64,000 nt of DNA from a bacterium. GTDB taxonomy: Bacteria; Patescibacteriota; Minisyncoccia; Phycocordibacterales; UBA5272. The stretch covers positions 380 through 64,379 of the forward strand of contig JAHFNC010000003.1 of the NCBI GenBank assembly GCA_023267535.1, written 5' to 3'. Of the stretch, positions 1,345 through 64,000 are shown piece after piece (within the stretch, counting starts at the first letter, position 1; each line of letters opens with the position of its first letter). The notes beneath the pieces were generated by a model, which was given only the letters and a program-made list of their open reading frames with translations, searched no databases and was not told the DNA's origin. Position numbers and translations under genes: made by a program.

Positions 1345-1626
1345 TTTTTTACAAAATTAAATTGAAAACAACACATCTGCCTCGTCTGCCAAATGCAGAC
1401 GGTGATAGGCATGTTTCCTAATAGGAATTCGGGTACTTAGTATGTCTCGGCTTAACACATTGCTATGCTTACACCTAACACCTATCAACGTAATAATCTC
1501 TTACGACCCTTCAACGAATACTAATCTTGAAGTTGGCTTCATTCTTAGATGCTTTCAGAATTTATCCATTCCCGACATAGCTACTGGGCGGTCCAGCTGG
1601 CGCTAGAGCCCACACACCAGAGGTCA

Positions 1627-1657
<31 letters not shown>

Positions 1658-1710
1658 ATCTTCTCAATATTCGAACGCCCGCAGAAGATAGGAAACCAAC
1701 CTGTCTCACG

Positions 1711-2027
1711 CATTGCTGTTTTACATCACTCCTTGGTTTCCAACCTGAGTGAACCTCTATTGCTAGAGGGATCGGACTATAGCATTCACTTATTTTTTAC
1801 TTAAGTGTATCAACGTTTAGTCTCTACGGGCTCTTTTATTTTCATAAATGATTCCCTCGGAATTATCCAATATGGACTTTCCCGATATTAGTCGATTTGT
1901 CTTCACATATCACTATGTGAAGCCGCCGTGATTGATGTCTTTTTGTTAAGTTTAGTCTTAACTCCTCGGGCTCAAACTAAGAGAAGTCAAAGTTACAAAA
2001 TATTTTCATATTATTCTGTAACCTTCA
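1711..2027 (-). other. group I intron in 23S domain V/VI (near E. coli position ~2590), no ORF
   Basis: It interrupts the contiguous conserved sequence GGGTT(T/C)A(G/A)AACGT|CGTGAGACAG. The 5' exon ends in U and the intron ends in G. R-like (AGAGACTAAACG, plus 1813-1823) and S-like (GCTATAGTCCGA, plus 1772-1783) core elements are present in the correct 5'-to-3' order. Confidence 0.6.
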
Positions 2028-2683
2028 CTCCTCTACGGTTTGAACCCAGCTCACGTATCTTTTTAAATGGCGAACAGCCATACCCTTGGTAGCTTCTCCA
2101 CCACCAGGATAAGATGAGCCGACATCGAGGTGCCGAACTGTGCCGTCGATATGAACTCTTAGGCACAACTAGCCTGTTATCCCCAGGGTAGCTTCTATCC
2201 GTTAATCTGCTCCTGCATCTAATGCAAAGAGTAGGTTCACTAGGACCCACTTTCGTGTCTGCTTGACATGTCCGTCTCACAGTCAAGCCAGCTTGTGCCC
2301 TTACACTATCGGCACGGTTTCCATTCGCGCCTAGCTGACCTTAATGTACTCCTCCGTTACTTTTTGGGAGGAAACCGCCCCAGTTAAACTCCCCGTCAGA
2401 TACTGTCTACGAACGTTTTTTCCGTTCATGTTAGCAAATGCCCCATTACAGATGGCTATTTCATTGTCGAGTAGATTACAGCCGAAACCATAAACATCAA
2501 ACCTCTCGCCACTATACTACGCAGTAAAGAAACATTTGCAATACCAAACTAGAGTAAAGCTCCTGGGGTCTTTTCGTCTATCTGCGGGTAACCGGCATCT
2601 TCACCGGTACTGTATTTTCACCGAGCTACTCCCAGAGACAGTTCCCCAGTCGTTACACCTTTCGTGCACGTCTGAACTTACCA

Positions 2684-2731
<48 letters not shown>

Positions 2732-2881
2732 GACGGGGGCTTATATCATCCAGCGCCGAAGCACCGCCGATATTTAACCTTCCCGCATTGGTCAGGTGTC
2801 ACCTCCTATACATCCACTTACGTGTTCGCAGGAAGCTGTGTTTTTGGTAAACAGTCGCTAGGGAAACTTTCGCTGCGGCCT

Positions 2882-3178
2882 CCATCACTTTATTTTCAAA
2901 GCAATGAAATCCATAGAGAATCATTTCCACCACACTGTATTTAATTACTTAAATACATTTTTTGTCCATACATTAGCTCTAATATATGGACTATTTGTCT
3001 CATTTTATTTTCAAATTCTCTAGGACCCTCACTTCACTTTCATAAATGAAGAAAAATGCTTTAGTAACGAGGAGCATAGAATTTTTCTAGGGAAAATGTA
3101 GATGAACTACATTGACCGACGAAAAATTCGTAGCGACAAAGTTAATGAAGTAATTTTGTTTATTTTGAACGCAAAGTG
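2882..3178 (-). other. AT-rich ~300-nt insertion in a variable 23S helix (E. coli ~1715-1745 region) that carries a copy of the dispersed 3'-element
   Basis: Conserved 23S sequence resumes on both sides, with only about 35 nt at this position in E. coli. The internal segment 3093-3165 matches the dispersed-element consensus. Confidence 0.5.
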
Positions 3179-3787
3179 ATGGAGGCAGATCTTATTGCTA
3201 ACTTACGATCGCTTTTTTGCCTAGTTCCTTTGGGAGATATCACTCGTTCGCCTTAGTCTACTCGACTTGAATACCTGTGTCGGTTTGCGGTACGGATTAA
3301 TAGAAATTTAAAGCATCTTCATATACCTAGATGATCTTTGCTTGCGCAAAGTAAAAGGCATATGAAGACGTTCTGTATTCACAGAATGTAGAGACTTTTC
3401 TCGGAGGCGTGCTTTATAAAGTTGAATCAGGTTGCCCATCATCTTCATGCGACACTTGGAATATTCTCGTACGGATTTGCCTATACAAGTTCCTCATGTA
3501 ACAAACGACAATCCAATAAGTCGCTTTATATACTACACCCCGTCATCCCATCACATTTCTACCAAGTTAAGGAATATTAACCTTATGTCCATCGGGTCCG
3601 GCGTTTGCCATCCCCTTAGGCCCGACTAACCCTTCGCTGAAAACCATTGCAAAGGAAACCTTATTCTTTCGGCGTGGGGGTATCTCACCCCCATTGCGGT
3701 TACTTGTGCCAACATTCGTACTTCCACACGCTCCACGGTGGGTTACCCCTTCCGCTTCAACGCAGAGTGGAACACTCTCCTACCGCT

Positions 3788-4171
3788 TGTGAACTTCATA
3801 GAGGAGGTGTATGGTCCTCGTAGTATAGGAATCCGCTCGCTTGTGTACAAAAATAGCGGATATGTCTTCGTTTAGGTTTGTCAGATTTGGAATCCAACAA
3901 TCTCACGCGATGACAGTGACCGGCTCGTTGCTCTAAGCATCGTCCTATATCGCCACAATTAAGTGGCCTACTAACACACACCTGTTGAAACAAGTTAAGA
4001 CGACCAAGCGTCTAAGTTCGCGCATGATATAACTCCGATTAGCGTTATGCCCTCCCCAAGGGACGGCAATACGACACACAGAATCAGTGATCCGCACTTA
4101 TTTTAGCTTTATCGCTTTTACTTGATTCGAGGTCGCATCTTATATTGATGCAATCCTCTATGAAGTTCACA
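3788..4171 (-). other. helix-45-type intervening sequence (about 350 nt) closed by an 18-bp perfect inverted repeat
   Basis: tgtgaacttcatagagga (3788-3805) is the exact reverse complement of 4154-4171. The flanks align to E. coli ~1160 (CCGAAGCTGCGG) and ~1190 (GGTAGGGGAGCG). Confidence 0.6.
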
Positions 4172-4857
4172 AACCCTCAGTTTCGGTGGTAGATTTGAGT
4201 CCCGATTATTTGTGGCGCAGAGTCTCTCGATGGGTGAGCTGTTACGCTTTCTTTCAATGATGGCTGCTTCTAAGCCAACATCCTCATTGTCAATGAAACT
4301 CCACCTCCTCGCTTACACTTAATCTACACTTAGGGACCTTAACTTGAGATCTGGGCTTTTTCCCTTTTGACCGACGGAGCTTCGCCCCCGTAGTCTTACT
4401 GCCGCGTTTTTAACTCTTGGTATTCGGAGTTTGATAGGTCATGCCGTATTTCTACTAGTCAAGACCTTCCAGTGCTCTACCCCCAAGAGGAACACACGAC
4501 GCTAGTCCAAAAACTATTTCGGAGAGAACCAGCTATTACCAGATTCGATTAGCTTTTCACTCCTTACCACAAGTCATCCAAAGGAGTCGTACAACCTAAT
4601 GGTTCGGGCCTCCATTTACCTTTCGGTAAACTTCACCCTGCTCATGGTAAGCTCATCTGGCTTCGGGTCCATAAGTAACGACAATAATTTCGCGCTATTA
4701 ACACTCGCTTTCGCTTTGGCTCCGTGACTTTATACCACTTAGCCTGCCGTTACCTATGACTCGTTGGCTCATTCTTCAATAGGCACGCAGTCGAGGTGTA
4801 AACACCTCTTCTACTCCTTGTAAATATACGGTTTCAGTTCTATTTCACTCCCCTTCC

Positions 4858-4901
<44 letters not shown>

Positions 4902-5812
4902 ACTCTTTAGATATTTAGCCTTGCCGGTTAGTTCCGGCTAATTCATCCGAGCTATTCGTGTCTCGAACTACTCAGGATAAGACATAAAAGAGAGATAAAT
5001 ATTTCGATTACAAGACTATCACTTTCTTTGGTGTTGCTTTCCAACAACTTAATCTATATTTACCTTTTGTAACTCTTCTAGAAATCTACATGTCTTCCCT
5101 ATAACCCCTCACACCAACTTTGCTTTCCAGTATTTTTACTGAACTTCAAAGTTGGTGTGAGGTTTGGGCTGCTCCGCTTTCGCTCGCCGCTACTTACGGA
5201 ATAACTATTGTTTTATTTTCCTCCGGCTACTGAGATGTTTCACTTCGCCGGGTGCGCATCTTGGGATTGCTCCCTAAGATCATACAACATTACTTGTATG
5301 AGGTTTCCCCATTCAGAGATCTCCGGATCGAAGGTTGTTAGGCACCTCCCCGAAGCGTATCGTCGCCTGACCACGTCTTTCATCGCTCTAAAGAACCAAG
5401 GCATCCACCGTATACTCTTAATTTTCCTATTAGGAAACATAACTATCACTTGTTATTTCAAACCGCTTCGAAATAACAATGTATTGTTTTCAATTTAATT
5501 TTTAACATCCATATCAAACTGCACAGACCCCAGGTCGTTAAAACTTCCTGGATAACATTTGGCGCAATTCGTATGGGATTCTATTGTCAAACTACATTCA
5601 TTCTGATTTTTACAAAAACAAAATCCGCCTTTGGCGGACCGAGCAAAACTAAAGTTTCGCGCAGACGCCTAGAGTTTTAGTTTTGTAATAGTTTTTATCA
5701 TTCAGTGAGTTTATCTATCCTATCAAAACGGGTAAATAAAGTCAAGAGAAAAAGAGCTTTTAAATTAAGACTTTTCTGTCTCTTAAAAAGGCCAAAAGAA
5801 AGCATAAGAAAA

Positions 5813-5868: not shown

Positions 5869-6531
5869 CTAGTTCTTCATCTTTTCAATAGCTTTTGCGG
5901 CTGCATCACGTCCACCTAGTCCAAATGAAAGACCTAGTGCTAAAGAGATAGCAAATACAAAGCCAGTAAATAATACTTCTACCAAACCTTGTGCAATCTT
6001 AAGTTGTGACAATGCTGGGAAAACACCGCCTACGATTATTATTGCCCATCTGGTAACTGTGGCTGCAAATGAAGCCTTGATTCCTGTTGCTTTAACAGAG
6101 TGTGCCACAATATTTGAAACAAAATCAGCAAGAAGAGCTGCCATAGCTAAAACGACTGCTGCCACTATAACTTGTGGAATATATTGGAATATATTTGTTA
6201 AAAGAGTTGTGATTTGGCTTAAGTTAAGTATTTCTGCTGATGCTATTGTAAAAGCAATTATAACTAACCACTTAATAAGCCCACCAACAAAACCTGACAA
6301 ACTTAATTTTGTGCCAGCTTTTTCACTTAGTGTTGATAGACCTGCTTTATTTAAAGCATGATCAACTTTTAACATAACAATAAGATGTGAAATAGCACGA
6401 CCCAAAACAGAACCGAAAACCCAGCCGAGAGCAAAGATAACCACTGCAATAATTACATTTGGCAAAAATGAGATTGCCGTCATTGAAGTGTCTACTAATG
6501 CTGTTCCTAAAATATCTATTGGATTGAACAT
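5869..6531 (-). CDS. polytopic membrane protein with repeated 'conserved TM helix'-like segments (220 aa)
   Basis: Several hydrophobic helices with a repeated helix-x-L…G…L pattern. No enzymatic motif. Confidence 0.45.
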   Translation of the reverse strand: MFNPIDILGTALVDTSMTAISFLPNVIIAVVIFALGWVFGSVLGRAISHLIVMLKVDHALNKAGLSTLSEKAGTKLSLSGFVGGLIKWLVIIAFTIASAEILNLSQITTLLTNIFQYIPQVIVAAVVLAMAALLADFVSNIVAHSVKATGIKASFAATVTRWAIIIVGGVFPALSQLKIAQGLVEVLFTGFVFAISLALGLSFGLGGRDAAAKAIEKMKN

Positions 6532-34036: not shown

Positions 34037-34513
34037 TTACTTTGTAGACACCCATCTTGCACTCCTTGTGCCAGCATCTTTTAATATCCAATTAGCAGGT
34101 GTACCTTGTTTCTTTTGGTCTTTATCTCCGTAATACCAACCTTTCGCTTGATCTTCCGCTGTAAATTGATTCATAGCAGTATTTGAACCTGTATTTTGAT
34201 CTGGCATAACTGTAGCTACCCATCTTGCACTTTTTGTTCCAGCATCTTTTAACACCCAACCAACCGGAGTTCCTTGTTTCTTTTGGTCTTTATCTCCGTA
34301 ATACCAACCTCTGGCTTTATCCTCTGCTGTAAATTGACCTGCTGTGTTTGTAACCTCTGTATTTTGCCCAGTTGTGGTTGCAACAATTGCGGTTGATGTT
34401 GGCGCAGGCGGAGTATTTGAAACTATTGGAGTGTTACCTAATAAACCAGAAAATAAAGCCACGATGCTAGCAAAAAAAGATAATATTGTGTTCATATAGT
34501 TAAATTCTATCAT
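34037..34513 (-). CDS. small secreted protein with two tandem ~50-aa repeats (158 aa)
   Basis: Signal/TM segment, then QFTAEDKARGWYYGDKDQKKQGTPVGWVLKDAGTKSARWV duplicated. The DNA shows ~150-nt direct repeats. Confidence 0.5.
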   Translation of the reverse strand: MIEFNYMNTILSFFASIVALFSGLLGNTPIVSNTPPAPTSTAIVATTTGQNTEVTNTAGQFTAEDKARGWYYGDKDQKKQGTPVGWVLKDAGTKSARWVATVMPDQNTGSNTAMNQFTAEDQAKGWYYGDKDQKKQGTPANWILKDAGTRSARWVSTK

Positions 34514-51033: not shown

Positions 51034-52515
51034 TTAGAAAGGTCTAGCGATTGGATTTACGTTAACGGTTGTAGTTGATACTCCAACTAAGTTTCCATTT
51101 GAATCAACAGCTGTTAAATCAAACTCAACACTTCTTGGAAGCCAGTCATTATTAGTAATAGAAATTGGAATTGATTGCTGTAAATAGTTTGTAACTTGTG
51201 ACATTGTAAAGTCTTGATTACAATAGTTAGTTGTTCCACCAACATTTACAATAACGCCAATAGTTGGGCAAATTGCTCTAATTTTGATTGAGTAAATTCC
51301 CGAAGCGCTTGTATTTCCGTAAATGTATGGAGCTGGAACATCAACGAAAAGTCTGAATCCCTCCCCTGAATCAACTGGGTTCTTACTAACGGTTAATGTT
51401 GCTCCGCTATTATAAGTAAATGGTCTGACAATTGTAATCTGTGAAGCTGAAGCCTTAAACGGTACAACGTTTCCAGCAATATCCTTGATATAAGTATTAA
51501 CAGAGATTGCATAATTGTTCTTAATTTGATTTGTACAAACCCCAAGACAAACTGAATCTAGTAAATCTTTTGTAAGAGTAAATGTTGCGGTATTATTTAC
51601 ATTAGCAACCACATTTACAACATTTCCAGTTGAAGTATTTTCAAGTCTGATTGTGTAATTGTTAGCATTTACATTTGATGATGTCCAAGAAACAGTAACT
51701 TGATCACCTTCGTGAAAAACAGAATTCTGACCAGGTGAAGTGATAGTTAATGTTCCTGGTTGTGTAGCAATACCGTAGGTGTAACCAATAAAAGGATTAT
51801 AGACAACGCTTGTGCCATTAACTAAAGATGAAACATTGTTTGGATAATTATTTGTCGAATAATTAATTGGTGATTGTATTACAGGTGAATTGATTACAGG
51901 ACTGTTTGAATAAACAGAATTTGTGTTTGTATTGTAATTGTTTGAATAAGAACTATTTGAGTAAACAGGATTTGTGTTTGATAGATTATTTATGACAGAG
52001 GAAACTGAAACAGAATTTGAAAGATTATTTTGTGGAGTTTGGTAAATTACTGGTGATTGATTAACGATTGGAGAAATAACTCTGGCGTATGGATCATATG
52101 GGTCAACATAAGTAACGTCAGACGAATTTCCGTATGAATTACCATAACCATTGTTATATCCACTGTTTGTATCCATTGATACATTTGAATCGCAAAGTCT
52201 TTCGTTTAAAGCATCAATTGTTGCAGAACCCACAACTCCAGTTTGAGATATTTGATTATCAGCTTGGAATTCCCCTACAGCTTGTTGTGTGGCATATCCA
52301 AAATATCCGTTTGGGTTTGCATGTAAATATCCAGCTCTTTGTAAAAATTCTTGTAACATAAGAACTTGGTCATTTTCAGAACCAAATGCTAAATTACTTG
52401 AAATCTGTGAATTACATTGATAAACAGGACTATTATTGAAATATCCAGCAAAAGATACCTCTGCGCCAGTCGCAAAAGCGCCTAAAATTGTCATAATTGT
52501 AATAATCTTTTTCAT
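51034..52515 (-). CDS. secreted protein (493 aa) with an N-terminal Cys-bounded PG_binding_1 domain, Ser/Asn/Tyr-rich linker and C-terminal Ig-like domains
   Basis: Signal peptide; C…DQVLMLQEFLQRAGYL…AVGEFQADNQ…C. Confidence 0.6.
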   Translation of the reverse strand: MKKIITIMTILGAFATGAEVSFAGYFNNSPVYQCNSQISSNLAFGSENDQVLMLQEFLQRAGYLHANPNGYFGYATQQAVGEFQADNQISQTGVVGSATIDALNERLCDSNVSMDTNSGYNNGYGNSYGNSSDVTYVDPYDPYARVISPIVNQSPVIYQTPQNNLSNSVSVSSVINNLSNTNPVYSNSSYSNNYNTNTNSVYSNSPVINSPVIQSPINYSTNNYPNNVSSLVNGTSVVYNPFIGYTYGIATQPGTLTITSPGQNSVFHEGDQVTVSWTSSNVNANNYTIRLENTSTGNVVNVVANVNNTATFTLTKDLLDSVCLGVCTNQIKNNYAISVNTYIKDIAGNVVPFKASASQITIVRPFTYNSGATLTVSKNPVDSGEGFRLFVDVPAPYIYGNTSASGIYSIKIRAICPTIGVIVNVGGTTNYCNQDFTMSQVTNYLQQSIPISITNNDWLPRSVEFDLTAVDSNGNLVGVSTTTVNVNPIARPF

Positions 52516-53435: not shown

Positions 53436-54035
53436 TCAATTTTTTTCTAATTCCACTATTGTTTCCTGTAGAAAATATTTGAAAAAGATTATTGCTAGTC
53501 TCCCAGTTTTTTTTGGTTTGAAATCAACATCTACATCAGCTGGGGTTCTGATTTTGTGGTCTAGACCAGAGAAAGAGATTGTCAGACCAAGTTTCTCAAT
53601 TTCTTCTTTTGCTTTCTCTGACCAAGCCTGAAGTTTTGTATGTTTATCGTAAAGCCTTATTTGTTCCTTCAAAAAGGCGGCACAGGTTTTACTATCTACG
53701 AAAGAAGGATTTTCTTGAAAATCATTGAAACCATTTATGCGATTGGTCACTTCAAGAAAAATCTTCCAAACAGGGGCACGATAACGAAACTCTTCCCCTT
53801 TTCTAAGAAATTGCCTAGGCTCTCTTGAGTCCCACGCCGGAGTAAACGGGAAATTATTTTCCATTTCATCAAATACTCGCCAAAGATAATTAGCGCTATT
53901 TATTCCAACTGAATCTTCGATGCCGTTTAAGATGTCCAGTAAACACTTACAAGAAAACAAAACGTCTACCTTGTAACCAAGGTCTGTCTGTATATGTCTA
54001 GGGAAAATACTCATAACCTTCTCCTCAAAAAACAA
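53436..54035 (-). CDS. hypothetical cytoplasmic protein (199 aa) inserted between rplX and rplE
   Basis: Intact ORF without TM segments or recognisable motifs. It has its own upstream terminator and 3'-element. Confidence 0.4.
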   Translation of the reverse strand: MFFEEKVMSIFPRHIQTDLGYKVDVLFSCKCLLDILNGIEDSVGINSANYLWRVFDEMENNFPFTPAWDSREPRQFLRKGEEFRYRAPVWKIFLEVTNRINGFNDFQENPSFVDSKTCAAFLKEQIRLYDKHTKLQAWSEKAKEEIEKLGLTISFSGLDHKIRTPADVDVDFKPKKTGRLAIIFFKYFLQETIVELEKN

Positions 54036-55141: not shown

Positions 55142-55561
55142 TTAACGCGCTACTACACGAGTCTTAACCGGAAGCTTTGTCCCTGCTTTGCGAAGAGCTT
55201 CACGTGCCACCTCTTCTGTTACTCCGTCAATCTCAAAGAGGACTCTTCCTGGACGAACTTCAAAACAATATCCCTTCGGATCTCCCTTTCCTTTTCCCAT
55301 CGGAACTTCTGCAGCCTTTTGAGTAACTGGTCTGTCTGGGAAAATACGAATCCAAATTTTAGCAGTCTTTCCAGCGTAACGAGTCATAGCACGACGAGCA
55401 GATTCAATTTGATTAGACATCACACGTGCTGGAGTCTCGGCTTTCAATCCAAAAGCACCGAAAGAAACTTTTATTCCTCTTGTCTCTGGACGATTAAGCT
55501 TTGCAACTGATAGTCTCGCCGATTGCCATTTTCTGTGTTTTACTTTTTTTGGAAATAACAT
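55142..55561 (-). CDS. rplP: 50S ribosomal protein L16
   Basis: L16 family (139 aa). Confidence 0.9.
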   Translation of the reverse strand: MLFPKKVKHRKWQSARLSVAKLNRPETRGIKVSFGAFGLKAETPARVMSNQIESARRAMTRYAGKTAKIWIRIFPDRPVTQKAAEVPMGKGKGDPKGYCFEVRPGRVLFEIDGVTEEVAREALRKAGTKLPVKTRVVAR

Positions 55562-59828: not shown

Positions 59829-61022
59829 CTAGGCGTTAATTTTTGTAACAACACCAGCACCTACAGTCTTACCTCCTTCACGGATAGCGAAACGGCCTTG
59901 CTCTTCAAGAGCGATAGGTGCGAGTAATTTAACAGTAAGCTTTACTGTATCTCCTGGCATAACCATTTCTGTTCCTGCTGGAAGTGTACATTCACCTGTT
60001 ACGTCAGTTGTTCTTACGTAAAATTGTGGCTTGTATCCATTGAAGAATGGTGTGTGACGACCTCCTTCTTCCTTCTTTAGAATGTAAACTTCACATTCAA
60101 AGTCAGTATGTGGCTTAACAGATCCAGCCTTAGCTAGAACTTGTCCACGAAGAATATCTTCCTTCTTGATACCACGAACTAGAAGTCCAGCGTTATCTCC
60201 AGCTTGTCCCTCTGGAAGAGATTTATTAAACATTTCAATTCCAGTAACAACTGTCTTAACAGTATCCTTTAGACCAACGATTTCAATTTCCTCGTTTAGT
60301 TTTACAACACCTCTTTCGATACGTCCTGTAACCACAGTTCCTCTTCCTTCAATTGAGAAAATATCTTCAACTGGCATAAGGAAAGGCTTTGTAACATCAC
60401 GCTCTGGCAATGGAATCCAAGTATCAAGAGCGTTTAGAAGCTCAACAATCTTTTGTGCCCATGGATCATCAAGTGACTTAGCTTCTGAAGCCTTAAGACC
60501 AGAACCTCTGATGATTGGAGTATTAACACCGTCGAATCCATACTTTGTAAGGATTTCGCGGATTTCTTCCTCAACCAACATAATCATTTCTTCATCTTCA
60601 ACCATATCGCACTTATTTAGAAATACCACCATTCTTGGAACACCAACTTGCTTTGCAAGTAGAACGTGCTCACGAGTTTGAGGCATTGGACCGTCAGTTG
60701 CAGCAACCACCAAGATTGCACCGTCCATTTGAGCGGCACCAGTAATCATGTTCTTGATATAGTCAGCGTGACCTGGAGCATCAATGTGTGCGTAGTGACG
60801 AGTATCTGTCCAGTACTCTGAGTGAGATAGAGAAATAGTAATACCACGAGCTTTTTCCTCAGGTGCCTTATCGATATCATCTACCCCTTTTGTTTTGATA
60901 GTTGCATCTTTTAAGTGAAGCACGTTAAGAATACCGGATGTAAGAGTAGTCTTTCCGTGGTCTACGTGACCGATTGTTCCCACATTTACGTGTGGCTTGT
61001 CGCGATTAAATGTTTCTGCCAT
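59829..61022 (-). CDS. tuf: elongation factor Tu
   Basis: [18 protein letters not shown] and NKCD GTPase motifs (397 aa). Confidence 0.97.
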
Positions 61023-61295
61023 ATGTTTTTTTAGAGATCTTATGTCGTATTGCTACGCATAGCGGACCTGTATTTTATATTAAAAATTAATAATTTATAA
61101 ATGATTCTGACCGCAAAATAATAAGCGAACAGAAAGATTCTTCTGCTTAACTCTTTATCATAGAGAGACTGCTAAGCGAATAGGTAAAATACTATCATAT
61201 CTGTTAATTAAACGCAAATATTGGGTGTTAATAGGTAAAAAGAAATCGCCAACCCAAGAAGGATTAGCGATTATTATTAAAGTTTGGCTTATAGT

Positions 61296-61883
61296 TTAGC
61301 CTTTGACGGGGAAGATATCCGTAAGTGGTTGGCCGAGGCCGACCAAAGTCAGGTCGTTGTGCGACGACGAGTAGTCATCGCTTACGACATGCACCGTTTG
61401 ACCGGGAATCACCTTGCCCGGGTTGTAAAACCCAGTAAACGATGTGTCTCCACCGAAACTGATGGCGCCAGTCGTGTCTTGCAGGGTGTGGAAGTTTGAA
61501 GTCTCCACCATCTGGGCGAACGGGTCCATCTGTTGATAAGTGAAAACTGTTCCATCGGGGTTGGTTTGCGTGACGTTGTGCATGTAGCCAAACGAAATGG
61601 TTTGGCCACTGCTTGCATTGCCATTCAAATTGACCGCATCTTTGCCATTCATTGACGCCGTCACAGCCGACATAAACGCCTGGAACACGGCGTCGGACTT
61701 GGCCGCCTGCACCGGGTCGGTGCCATTGTGAGACACCATGTTGTTGTCCGATGTGGACGTTGGCATCGTGGATGACGGCAGCGCAGGAGGTGAGGCAAAG
61801 AAGGGCGCCGGATGCGCTCCATTGTCTTGTCCGCCGAAAATGGAATGAACCAGATTCGAAAACATTTTCCCTAGAAAGCTCAT
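61296..61883 (-). CDS. hypothetical protein (195 aa) encoded in a GC-rich island
   Basis: Intact ORF; local GC is visibly far above the surrounding window (~55-60 % against ~35 %). The product is Ser/Thr/Gly/Asn-rich with no TM segment and no family assignment. Confidence 0.45.
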   Translation of the reverse strand: MSFLGKMFSNLVHSIFGGQDNGAHPAPFFASPPALPSSTMPTSTSDNNMVSHNGTDPVQAAKSDAVFQAFMSAVTASMNGKDAVNLNGNASSGQTISFGYMHNVTQTNPDGTVFTYQQMDPFAQMVETSNFHTLQDTTGAISFGGDTSFTGFYNPGKVIPGQTVHVVSDDYSSSHNDLTLVGLGQPLTDIFPVKG

Positions 61884-62023
61884 TTATTTCCCCTTTTTGT
61901 CAAAAAAAAATTCATTTCATGCGGAAATGCATGATTTATGAAAACTCGTGCTACCGATGTAAATTATACACTAAAAGTATACTTTGTCAAGGCCTAATTT
62001 TGAATATAACTCAGAAAAAACCC

Positions 62024-63226
62024 TTATTTTTTCTCGCCGCAAATTGGACAAAATGCCAATCCAACAATTCTTTGACCATTACATTTGCTACAAGTCTCTT
62101 TTATTTGGAAATGACAAACTGGGCAAAATCTATCTTCATTTCTAAGTAACATCGAACAATCAGGGCATTTATGATTTTTTAAAGCTCTAATCATGACTGC
62201 TTTTTTGTTGTATACCCTTTTCTGAATAACATAAACAATCCAACCGAATAAAATAGGAACAAGTAAAAGTAGAGCGTAATAAGAAAGCGGTAATAAAAAT
62301 CTAAAGCTATGTATTATATTTATAATAAATGTAATAAATTCTCTAGGAATAAGCTGATAGACGAATTGGAAGGATACTTGTGCAAACAAAATAGCAAAAA
62401 TAAGAGAGACAGCTGTCCAGATAATTGTGTATTGTGAATTTTCTTTTTTAAGAGCTAAATATTTTCTTAAACAGAAATATAAAGCTGGGGTAATAAGCAA
62501 GAACAATAGAAGAGCTCTTTCGAAATCAACAACTCTCGTCTCTCTATCAAATTCTGCAAAGGTTGCTTTTATTTCCCCACTATTATCCTTTGCAATCTTT
62601 ACTATTTTGTCATCAATTTCTTTTATAGAAGAAATAACTTGATCTCTTTCTTTTTTAAGACTATCTAATTGATTACTAGTTAAAATAAAATTATTTTTAG
62701 TAGCATTACCATCTATAGATGGAGGCACGTTGGCAATCTTTTCTGTAAGAGTAACAGAATAATTGCCTTGGGCGTTTTGCAAGTCTACTCCGGCGGAAGA
62801 AAGAGAATTATTTAAATTATTTAATTTTTGCTGTAAATCATCTTCTTCTTTTTGAAGTGGAATAATTTGTTCCATAACAAGCGGAATATTATTTAATTTT
62901 TCAATTGATGAGTAGACACAGGAATCTAAATTATTATTGTAATAAGAATAATAATATGGATACGAATATACTGGAGTAACCGTATCGCTGACATCTGCTA
63001 TTTTGGAATTTAAATACTGTCCGCAAATAGAAATTGGCTCTGGGCTTTTAATGAAATCTGAAACAGATGTAATAAAACCCTGCCCTCTCCAAACACCAAG
63101 AATAACCATAATAAAAAGTAGGAAATAGCCGAGCGTAGTTGTTTTCTTTTCGCTTATTTCTTCATATGGAGCGTAATTAGTATTTTCAGCAACGCTCCCC
63201 TGTTTTTTCCAAAAGAATATAGACAT
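62024..63226 (-). CDS. membrane protein (400 aa) with N-terminal TM, coiled-coil region, C-terminal TM cluster and a cytoplasmic double zinc ribbon
   Basis: C-terminal CPDC…CPVC…CSKC…CPIC; multiple hydrophobic helices; the middle is rich in Asn/Leu/Ser/Lys heptad-like repeats. Confidence 0.5.
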   Translation of the reverse strand: MSIFFWKKQGSVAENTNYAPYEEISEKKTTTLGYFLLFIMVILGVWRGQGFITSVSDFIKSPEPISICGQYLNSKIADVSDTVTPVYSYPYYYSYYNNNLDSCVYSSIEKLNNIPLVMEQIIPLQKEEDDLQQKLNNLNNSLSSAGVDLQNAQGNYSVTLTEKIANVPPSIDGNATKNNFILTSNQLDSLKKERDQVISSIKEIDDKIVKIAKDNSGEIKATFAEFDRETRVVDFERALLLFLLITPALYFCLRKYLALKKENSQYTIIWTAVSLIFAILFAQVSFQFVYQLIPREFITFIINIIHSFRFLLPLSYYALLLLVPILFGWIVYVIQKRVYNKKAVMIRALKNHKCPDCSMLLRNEDRFCPVCHFQIKETCSKCNGQRIVGLAFCPICGEKK

Positions 63227-63282
63227 AGTTTTGTATTTATTAGCTTATATCCTAAGTCTAGCACTAATTAGAGATAACAAAA

Positions 63283-63310
63283 GCGACGCCGTAGGCGTCG
63301 CTTTTGTGTT
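63283..63310. terminator. GCGACGCC-GTA-GGCGTCGC family terminator (after fusA and its 3'-element)
   Basis: acaaaagcgacgcc-gta-ggcgtcgcttttgt. Confidence 0.7.
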
Positions 63311-63475: not shown

Positions 63476-64000
63476 TTATTTTTTATTCTCGGCGATATCC
63501 TTGGCAATGTTCTGTGGAACCACATCATACTTTCCAAATTCCATTGTAAATGATGCACGTCCCTCTGTCATTGAACGCAAATTATTTACATAACCAAACA
63601 TTTCTGACAATGGAACCATTGCTCTCACAACTTTATCCATTCCTCTTTCGTCCATGCCTTCTATTTGTCCACGCTTTGATGATAGGTTTCCAGTAATATC
63701 TCCGTAGAACTTATCCGGTGTAACAACTTCCACTTTCATTATTGGTTCTAGAATAACCGGCTTCGCTTTTCCAACGGCATCAGAGAGTGCCATACCCGCA
63801 GCAATCTTGAAAGCGATTTCAGATGAGTCCACTTCGTGGAAAGATCCGTCATAAACTTCACAAGAAACATCAACCATCTTAAATCCAGCAAGAGTTCCGC
63901 GATCCATTGCTTCTCGCAATCCTTTTTCTACAGCAGGAACATATTCTTGTGGAATAACTCCACCTTTTATTGAGTTTACGAATTCAAAACCATTGTAACG
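63476..64000 (-). CDS. fusA: elongation factor G (C-terminal part; the gene continues beyond the window end)
   Basis: EF-G domains IV/V (…[32 protein letters not shown]…). The reading frame stays open to position 64000. Confidence 0.9.

Follow-up and report, generated by a model that had tools for sequence, protein, structure and literature searches.

We describe here a GC-rich gene (61296..61883, minus strand) that encodes a protein of 195 amino acids (aa) and lies between fusA and tuf in an AT-rich stretch of 64,000 nucleotides (nt; hereafter the window) from a Minisyncoccia bacterium (GenBank assembly GCA_023267535.1, contig JAHFNC010000003.1). Considering its foreign composition and codon usage, its absence from the syntenic site of 80 relatives and the sporadic occurrence of its family, we conclude that the gene was probably acquired horizontally (with a rough probability of 0.58), that its foreign composition is still intact, and that it most likely came from a higher-GC member of the Minisyncoccia/Paceibacteria. 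The first-pass annotation of this stretch (made from the sequence alone) had likewise proposed a high-GC donor and had called the acquisition recent. The transfer itself is favoured by all the lines of evidence listed above, while we only infer its recency (and its direction).

Composition and codon usage of the 195-aa gene

In 200-nt sliding windows the GC content climbs from 0.31-0.32 (61000-61299) to 0.52-0.57 (61300-61899) and falls back to 0.32 by 61900-62099. This bears out the GC island of the first-pass annotation, which had also placed its open reading frame (ORF) exactly and given its length correctly; only the GC content stated there (~55-60 %) was an overestimate, as the ORF averages 53.6 %. 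With this value (0.536, versus 0.380 for the whole window) the ORF is the maximum of all 588-nt windows (mean 0.380, standard deviation (sd) 0.041; z = 3.8), and the second-highest stretch (0.486) lies within the 23S rRNA gene. The GC contents of its first, second and third codon positions (GC1, GC2 and GC3) are 0.51, 0.44 and 0.65, respectively. Across the 47 ORF-called genes of the window GC3 averages 0.274 (sd 0.072), and the next highest value after that of the 195-aa ORF is 0.45.

When the same protein was re-encoded with the codon usage of the window (5000 draws), the GC content reached 0.406 +/- 0.010 (maximum 0.446), as compared to an observed value of 0.538 (z = 13). The GC excess is therefore synonymous, and amino-acid content was ruled out as its source. 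At the third positions of four-fold degenerate codons, G+C amounts to 71 % in the ORF, 21 % in the adjacent 400-aa gene and 6 % in tuf. Since tuf is highly expressed, translational selection in this genome does not favour G or C, and a selection of this kind for G/C-ending codons was ruled out as well. The four-fold profile of the ORF (A/C/G/T:.15/.33/.38/.13) is essentially that of a native gene (an amidase,.16/.27/.40/.17) from a contig of 55 % GC that carries a homolog (L004), and the opposite of that of tuf (.39/.03/.03/.54). Relative synonymous codon usage follows the same pattern, being negatively correlated with that of the window genes (r = -0.45) and positively with the backgrounds of two Minisyncoccia-type contigs of 55-57 % GC in which homologs occur (+0.36 for L004 and +0.38 for L006). 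The composition and the codon usage of the ORF are thus foreign to the resident AT-rich genome, that of an ultra-small bacterium of the Candidate Phyla Radiation (CPR).

A small protein family and its promoter-to-terminator unit

A word-indexed protein search found only the 195-aa protein itself, and the first-pass annotation had called it an orphan. This description does not hold, as an exhaustive HMMER search of 1.84 billion representatives recovered three full-length homologs with 43-47 % identity (P0002, E = 2e-40; P0003, 5e-34; P0004, 7e-28), and a profile search added P0029 and P0030. The resulting family has six members (the window copy and five full-length homologs with 37-47 % identity), which correspond to six protein clusters in a total of about 15 billion proteins. 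The only named one is P0004, annotated at NCBI as a hypothetical protein of a Minisyncoccia metagenome-assembled genome (MAG). No family member was encountered in pattern scans (based on four sequences; divergent variants would escape the patterns) and tblastn searches of GTDB representative genomes, JGI metagenome contigs and IMG/VR, nor by tblastn in phage and plasmid collections.

The six members align end to end, with 28 invariant columns. The conserved N-terminus (M-x-F-L-G-K-M-F-x-x-L-x-H-x-I-F-G-G) is followed by a Gly/Pro-rich linker of variable length, an SHNG motif, a helix (D-A-x-F-Q-x-F-x-S-A) and, further on, by F-G-Y-M-H-D-V-T-x-T-N-P-D-G-T, P-F-A-Q and a terminal K-G. The window protein contains no Arg, Cys or Trp and a single Glu, and F, M, H, D, Q and P are more frequent in it than in the window proteome. 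Two further statements of the first-pass annotation were sustained. It had recognised no domain, and none of the six members has a significant match in Pfam, NCBIfam, PHROGs or PADLOC (best: CBM_2, E = 0.15), in a sequence-profile search of the PDB (best: 4jde, E = 0.2) or, with Foldseek, in PDB and BFVD (no match with a template-modelling (TM) score above 0.30). It had also seen no trans-membrane segment, and no 19-residue stretch of the protein attains trans-membrane hydrophobicity. A cystatin-like repeat protein of 1194 aa (P0005) was set aside as a relative, given that the match is confined to residues 89-124, a single β-hairpin with its NPxG turn, and that its E-value is inflated because of 13 identical repeats.

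In the AlphaFold2 prediction, a helix at the N-terminus and a disordered linker precede a second helix (~57-78) and four long β-strands between residues 83 and 181; in a model of the domain only, the predicted local distance difference test (pLDDT) score of the core is 83-92. Residues 1-16 form an amphipathic segment (hydrophobic moment 0.34-0.46). The predicted architecture is thus an amphipathic N-terminal helix of 16-18 residues that ends at F-G-G, a Gly/Pro-rich disordered linker, a helix, a long four-stranded β-meander and a KG end. A meander as elongated as the modelled one probably needs partners in order to bury its faces. We tentatively suggest a peripheral accessory protein whose β-sheet domain would oligomerise and be anchored at the membrane or envelope by the N-terminal helix, although this guess is more likely to be wrong than right.

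Two of the homologous genes sit in contigs of similarly high GC content. In L004 (assigned to Minisyncoccia at NCBI) the ORF has a GC content of 0.576 in a locus of otherwise 0.545 and a GC3 of 0.69 (neighbours 0.51-0.69), and in L006 the corresponding values are 0.597, 0.572 and 0.77 (neighbours 0.66-0.72). As the family ORF here matches the genome composition (55-57 % GC), this is the candidate donor clade. The two loci are syntenic and present, in order, a large Ser/Thr-rich surface protein with a peptidoglycan (PG)-binding C-terminus, the family ORF, a protein with Amidase_3 and PG_binding_1 domains, and malic enzyme. The surface protein that neighbours the member from the Minisyncoccia MAG has relatives in the window and in other Paceibacteria. 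We considered the amidase as the partner of an effector-immunity pair and set this aside, because there is no signal peptide, the family gene has its own terminator and no amidase stands beside the window copy. Between L004 (5182-5766) and L006 (1290-1889) the family ORF shares 40 % aa identity, with a nonsynonymous divergence (dN) of 0.58, as compared to 73 % (dN 0.20) for the amidase and 88 % (dN 0.075) for malic enzyme, a divergence above that of its neighbours which points to fast evolution or to replacement in situ.

In the other members the ORF stands out from its surroundings, as it does in the window (ORF GC 0.536, rest of the locus 0.365; GC3 0.65 versus 0.27). The values (which for these three loci rest on flanks of no more than 1.3 kb as far as host composition is concerned) are 0.596 versus 0.461 in L003 (GC3 0.77, neighbour 0.37), 0.555 versus 0.467 in L007 (GC3 0.74, neighbour 0.41) and 0.519 versus 0.333 in L008 (GC3 0.64, neighbour 0.26). 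L003 and L007, the closest pair of the family, are syntenic (a GGDEF gene lies downstream), and the ratio of nonsynonymous to synonymous divergence (dN/dS) between them is 0.33. The context of L008 differs. The gene downstream of its family ORF shares 62 % identity with one in the window (34037-34513, minus strand), and the hosts of the two appear to be related. The product of this window gene measures 158 aa and is internally duplicated (two GWYYGDKDQKK...W(V/I)LKDAGT(K/R)SARW repeats); the gene lies after that of a surface protein of 1511 aa whose C-terminus is PG-binding, secY comes next, and no family unit is found at this place. All the members that could be placed (the window copy, L004, its syntenic partner L006, and L008) are of CPR type, whereas L003 and L007 are too short for placement.

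The gene is surrounded by signals of its own. A sigma-70-type promoter (61963..61990, minus strand; TTGACA-16-TATAAT, 12/12 in a consensus scan) is followed by a hairpin in the 5' untranslated region (UTR; 61917..61934, minus strand; TCATGC-ATTTCC-GCATGA) and by a Shine-Dalgarno-like AAGGGG that was read from the sequence 6 nt before the ATG (61890..61895, minus strand). A sequence scan detected an intrinsic terminator (61235..61272, minus strand; 12-bp stem AATCGC...GCGATT and TCTTTTT) on the other side of the ORF. By these predicted signals, the island is a self-contained single-gene transcription unit (about 61235-61990, minus strand) in which the signals are AT-rich and the coding part is GC-rich.

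Much of this unit recurs in the homologs. The one in L008 is preceded by the same 12/12 promoter, a TTGACA promoter is common to L004 and L006, and TTGAC is invariant in the upstream regions of all six members, which also carry similar GGGG/GGAG motifs ahead of the start codon. A homologous terminator (AATCG(C/T)CAG...CTGGCG(A/G)TT and a T-run) lies 3' of the ORF in L008 (AATCGTCAG...CTGGCGATT-TCTTTTT) and in L004 and L006 (AATCGCCAG...CTGGCG), with a shared hairpin position. An equivalent 5' UTR hairpin occupies the same place in each of the six members, with stems that differ: CCACAC-ATTTCC-GTGTGG in L008 (loop as in the window), GCTAGGCG-AATC-CGCTTAGC in L006 and ATAGGGT-TTCG-GCCCTAT in L003/L007. 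Its C-rich loops (ATTTCC, AATC/ATCC, TTCG) form a sample too small for statistics, and it has no match in Rfam.

About 20 nt beyond the terminator lies a promoter-like element of tuf (61189..61217, minus strand; TTGCGT-17-TAGTAT with a TG extension), read from the sequence, whose boxes are conserved in the closest relatives (L014-L020) and which marks the downstream edge of the variable spacer; from this we infer that tuf is transcribed independently. Parts of the ~160-190-nt tuf leader (61023-61217, minus strand) are conserved in the same relatives (complementary segments of the CTTAGC...GCTAAG type and a TAGTCCAATATCC block), and it may be a regulatory leader.

The fusA-tuf spacer in the window and in relatives

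The genes run in the order fusA, 400-aa double-zinc-ribbon protein, 195-aa ORF, tuf, rpsJ and rplC, and the flanking genes named by the first-pass annotation were identified correctly. The 3' end of fusA (63476..64000, minus strand; domains IV and V of elongation factor G, Pfam EFG_IV and EFG_C) forms the upstream edge of the spacer. The neighbour of the ORF (62024..63226, minus strand) encodes a membrane protein of 400 aa that has a double zinc ribbon at its C-terminus (PF12773, E = 4e-6; membrane segments judged by eye), and tuf (elongation factor Tu; 59829..61022, minus strand) is succeeded by rpsJ, rplC and the S10 operon. Hence, in the window tuf does not directly follow fusA; a gap of 2453 nt with two genes separates them.

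For comparison we used 80 loci from GTDB representative genomes, found by scanning with the S10 protein of the window (the closest have Tuf proteins 88-92 % identical). They are labelled Paceibacteria/Minisyncoccia (Nomura-, Yonath-, Kaiser-, Taylorbacteria and others), apart from some that bear the name Saccharibacteria in error. Both genes are present in 49 of the loci, where 22 to 6153 nt (median 1466) separate the stop codon of fusA from the start of tuf; this gap is at most 450 nt in 11 of the 49 and above 3 kb in 15. A further ten loci present at least 4 kb upstream of tuf without fusA. The distance between tuf and rpsJ, which served as a control, is tight in all 80. The 'normally invariant' str operon of the first-pass annotation is thus at odds with its state in the Paceibacteria relatives, where the gap spans 22 to more than 6000 nt.

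The gaps of the relatives are filled by unrelated accessory genes, mostly of envelope type (proteins with PG-binding motifs recognised by eye, a DUF378 membrane protein and others), and tblastn detected no homolog of the 195-aa or of the 400-aa protein in any of the 80 loci. When the window is compared with its closest relatives, DNA homology is lost at the stop codon of fusA and regained ~8 nt ahead of the start codon of tuf. In this lineage the spacer is thus a hotspot of gene turnover.

The first-pass annotation had paired the ORF with the 400-aa gene, and we rejected this link. The composition of the 400-aa gene is native (GC 0.31, GC3 0.22), and its 22 homologs occur elsewhere in unrelated contexts (after rplE, next to a TraG-like gene, next to a diversity-generating retroelement, DGR) with no family member beside them; the two genes therefore occupy the hotspot independently of each other. 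One of these homologs (L013, 3244-7092) lies close to a DGR (bAvd and RVT_1), separated from it by one 428-aa gene, and in L010 a TraG/VirD4-like coupling protein precedes another. Upstream of the 400-aa gene in the window are a perfect 14-bp hairpin (63277-63307, ~50 nt away) and a perfect 19-nt inverted repeat (63360-63378/63468-63486) with arms 89 nt apart, one of which overlaps the fusA stop codon.

The spacer holds no mobility gene (the 400-aa gene is the only other one), ARAGORN found no tRNA in the 64-kb window, and the flanks of the unit contain only short chance repeats, with no flanking direct repeat or transposon end. We thus rejected a transposon or an integron-type cassette (no flanking repeats beyond chance), as well as the target gene of a DGR (no template repeat, and no part of the island that recurs over more than 16 nt within the window).

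GC-rich ORFs were also encountered upstream of tuf in other genomes. A scan of 1.04 Mb of the relatives' loci for islands (300-nt windows exceeding the median of the locus by 0.17 or more) returned only three, and two of them are such ORFs. In the closest relative (L014, MAG nzgw470; 6024-6500, plus strand) an unrelated 158-aa ORF with a signal-peptide-like N-terminus stands at the junction of the spacer and the tuf promoter, with a GC content of 0.63, a GC3 of 0.72 (locus median 0.24) and its own terminator. In L036 (6106-6369, plus strand) an 87-aa ORF of secretory type (GC 0.60) lies just upstream of tuf. The searches made detected no homologs of either, and the ORF of L014 is absent from JGI contigs and from the fetched loci. 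Within the 6-kb fusA-tuf gap of L020 there are two ORF-sized stretches (1580-1873 and 2864-3277) with GC contents of 0.50-0.56 and GC3 of 0.62-0.65 (locus median 0.41).

Elsewhere in the window, the 23S rRNA match (1418-5431, minus strand) measures 4014 nt against a model of 2925 nt, with ~1.1 kb of insertion(s) for which an intron or an intervening sequence is possible, and a 5S rRNA gene is located at 1039-1148. The S10/spc cluster is interrupted between rplX and rplE by a gene (53436-54035, minus strand) without a Pfam match (192 aa in L001, 199 aa from the first start), and rplE is followed by a 493-aa PG_binding_1 protein (51034-52515, minus strand). One relative carries 400-aa-type zinc-ribbon, PG_binding_1 and HemolysinCabind proteins between rplE and rpsH.

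Origin of the gene and comparison with known systems

We propose that the family is native to a higher-GC clade of Paceibacteria (of the L004/L006 type), where it would diverge quickly, and that the whole promoter-to-terminator module was passed on to lower-GC relatives. In the genome of the window it would have landed in the fusA-tuf spacer, which turns over freely in this class, and it would be transcriptionally insulated there by its own terminator and by the conserved promoter, some 20 nt beyond it, from which tuf would start anew.

Several observations weigh against this proposal. Neither an integrase or a tRNA nor a direct repeat or a transposon end marks the locus, and no donor sequence of close similarity was found (the best homolog is 47 % identical, with saturated synonymous divergence, dS). 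Moreover, four of the six family members are GC3 outliers in their hosts (by 0.33-0.40), for which one would have to assume either that transfer took place independently several times or that some factor maintains the high GC content. The syntenic L003 and L007 copies, at a dS of ~0.5, still have a GC3 of 0.74-0.77 beside a gene at 0.37-0.41, a persistence that is not predicted by pure neutral amelioration, and the copies in the window and in L008, whose hosts appear related, are similar in GC content (0.54 and 0.52). The host composition behind three of the outliers (L003, L007 and L008) derives from the short flanks mentioned above, and the functional guess, with no Foldseek match above a TM score of 0.30 in PDB and BFVD, is weak.

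The main rival to horizontal acquisition is consequently a maintained GC content. It supposes that selection (for mRNA stability or structure, or for codon choice) or another biased process holds the ORF at 52-60 % GC in every host, with long-term maintenance and an occasional relocation or transfer. All six members indeed fall between 0.52 and 0.60, with 68-82 % G+C at four-fold sites, in hosts that range from 0.33 to 0.57. The L003/L007 pair fits this expectation, and so do the two AT-hosted copies (window and L008), nearly equal in GC although synonymously saturated (dS 2.4), bearing in mind that their hosts appear related. The folding of the family mRNAs is also more stable than that of dinucleotide-shuffled sequences (z = -4.0, -1.8, -3.6, -0.7, -2.9 and -1.7, mean ~-2.5, as compared to a mean of -0.4 for eight control coding segments), but one of the controls (rplC) likewise reaches z = -3.0, and RNAalifold (-29.6 kcal/mol over 639 columns, with an unfavourable covariation term) gives no conserved structure. 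The codons of tuf, as stated above, disfavour codon choice as the cause, for three members only very short flanks inform on the host GC content, and the extreme rarity of the family requires horizontal spread in any case. On balance, we regard a maintained composition as a possible but rather unlikely explanation. Even less probable, to our minds, is a broader version of it, in which a compositionally locked, fast-evolving and self-contained module (promoter, hairpin of constant position, ORF and common terminator; ~70 % four-fold G+C at host GC contents of 33-57 %) moves among Paceibacteria, and the few hundred bases above the tuf promoter act as a preferred landing pad for GC-rich single-ORF modules (those of the window, L014 and L036 being unrelated).

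Other origins have considerably less in their favour. The first-pass annotation had suggested, as donor, the host cell of a presumed episymbiont. Such a gene from a high-GC organism outside the CPR would account for the GC content and is compatible with a perfect sigma-70 promoter (which would work in many bacteria), and some transfers to Patescibacteria do come from Omnitrophota, Bacteroidota and others (PMC12455944). Yet neither the exhaustive HMMER search nor tblastn against phages and plasmids found a homolog in any other organism, phage or plasmid (nothing outside the small family), all placeable members are of CPR type, the sole named one comes from a Minisyncoccia MAG and is neighboured by a surface protein with relatives in the window and in Paceibacteria, and the neighbour of the L008 copy is 62 % identical to a window gene; we therefore consider a donor of this kind improbable. 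An assembly chimera, the other option of the first-pass annotation, or a contamination, by which a piece of some GC-rich genome would have been joined to an AT-rich contig in error, would agree with a contig that stems from a metagenome assembly and with a change in composition that coincides sharply with the ORF boundaries. However, the exact protein is encoded on three assemblies made with different assemblers and pipelines (from samples that may be related), namely the 142.5-kb NCBI contig, a MEGAHIT contig from ENA (L001; 12,274 nt aligned to the window with a single mismatch, which falls outside the island at 55351) and a Logan contig (L002; 2,995 nt at 100 %), the latter two crossing both island boundaries, and the junctions are identical in all of them. 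The L008 homolog, from an unrelated sample, repeats the layout (flanks 0.28-0.30 GC, ORF 0.52), and family members from other samples have flanks homologous to the AT-rich promoter, UTR and terminator of the window unit, so that the GC/AT boundary at the ends of the ORF belongs to the module itself. As a k-mer mis-join would not yield an ORF-exact insert with a matching Shine-Dalgarno motif and terminator either, we give almost no credence to a chimera. The same holds for a structured noncoding RNA (or another non-protein element) in which the ORF is incidental. Structured RNAs are the usual GC peaks of AT-rich genomes (the 23S rRNA gene is the second peak here) and the minimum free energy of the stretch is low (z-score -3.7 to -4.0), but it has no Rfam match at the gathering score or at E <= 1 and no conserved consensus structure in RNAalifold, while it contains an open frame of 195 codons with GC3 > GC1 > GC2 and has homologs at the protein level (E down to ~1e-40) with in-frame indels and conserved motifs.

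Returning to horizontal acquisition from a higher-GC relative, which we favour, the result bears on annotation in that the island is genuine (and not a mis-assembly) and the former orphan belongs to a small CPR-restricted family. Furthermore, the contiguity of fusA and tuf should not be assumed in Paceibacteria, which matters wherever blocks of ribosomal-protein or str-operon genes are used as syntenic markers or in binning checks. The gene would add one more case of CPR-to-CPR gene flow, concerning a strongly promoted and fast-evolving small protein, with cell-wall genes around its apparently native copies. A wider significance would arise only if the GC persistence across hosts and the recurrence of GC-rich ORFs above tuf proved to be selected or site-specific, and not coincidental.

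A transfer between CPR bacteria agrees with a survey of groundwater Patescibacteria, in which 83 % of the detected transfers come from other Patescibacteria (PMC12455944). The 195-aa gene resembles the transferred genes and small islands of that study in having a CPR recipient, a probable CPR donor, a function that is either unknown or of envelope type, and no close donor among the sampled genomes; it departs from them in being a compositional outlier without a detectable donor (older transfers, as noted there, lose their GC signal). The MAG naming of that study ('nzgw') is also the one borne by the closest relative of the window locus, L014.

With regard to its site, the fusA-tuf interval gathers different accessory genes in each genome, its flanks remain syntenic and the tuf-rpsJ distance is constant. 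This is what is reported of the chromosomal organisation of horizontal transfer, with integration and turnover hotspots lying between core genes. The difference is that the present site falls within a cluster of translation genes (str/S10) that most bacteria keep contiguous, and that no integrase, tRNA or repeat marks it.

The N-terminus of the protein recalls the double-glycine leaders that class II bacteriocins are said to carry, as its 18 amphipathic residues lead to F-G-G (positions 16-18 in five of the six members, F-G-N in P0030) and hydrophobic residues occupy -4, -7, -12 and -15. The mature part of ~177 aa would nevertheless be far too long, and no C39-peptidase ABC transporter stands beside any member in the contexts seen (most contigs being short), so the likeness to an export leader seems to be a formal resemblance only.

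The closest parallel concerns the unit as a whole. Phage morons are reportedly autonomous promoter-ORF-terminator units of deviating GC content placed between conserved genes. In like manner, the 195-aa unit consists of a single ORF with its own strong promoter and factor-independent terminator, deviates in composition, lies between two conserved genes that it leaves undisturbed and is absent from the same site in close relatives. In contrast to morons, it is situated outside any phage or prophage, next to fusA and tuf and with no match among PHROGs, IMG/VR or INPHARED/phage genomes, and its regulatory flanks travel with the gene across hosts. The unit would thus be a moron-like single gene, probably acquired by horizontal transfer, in a lineage-specific hotspot.

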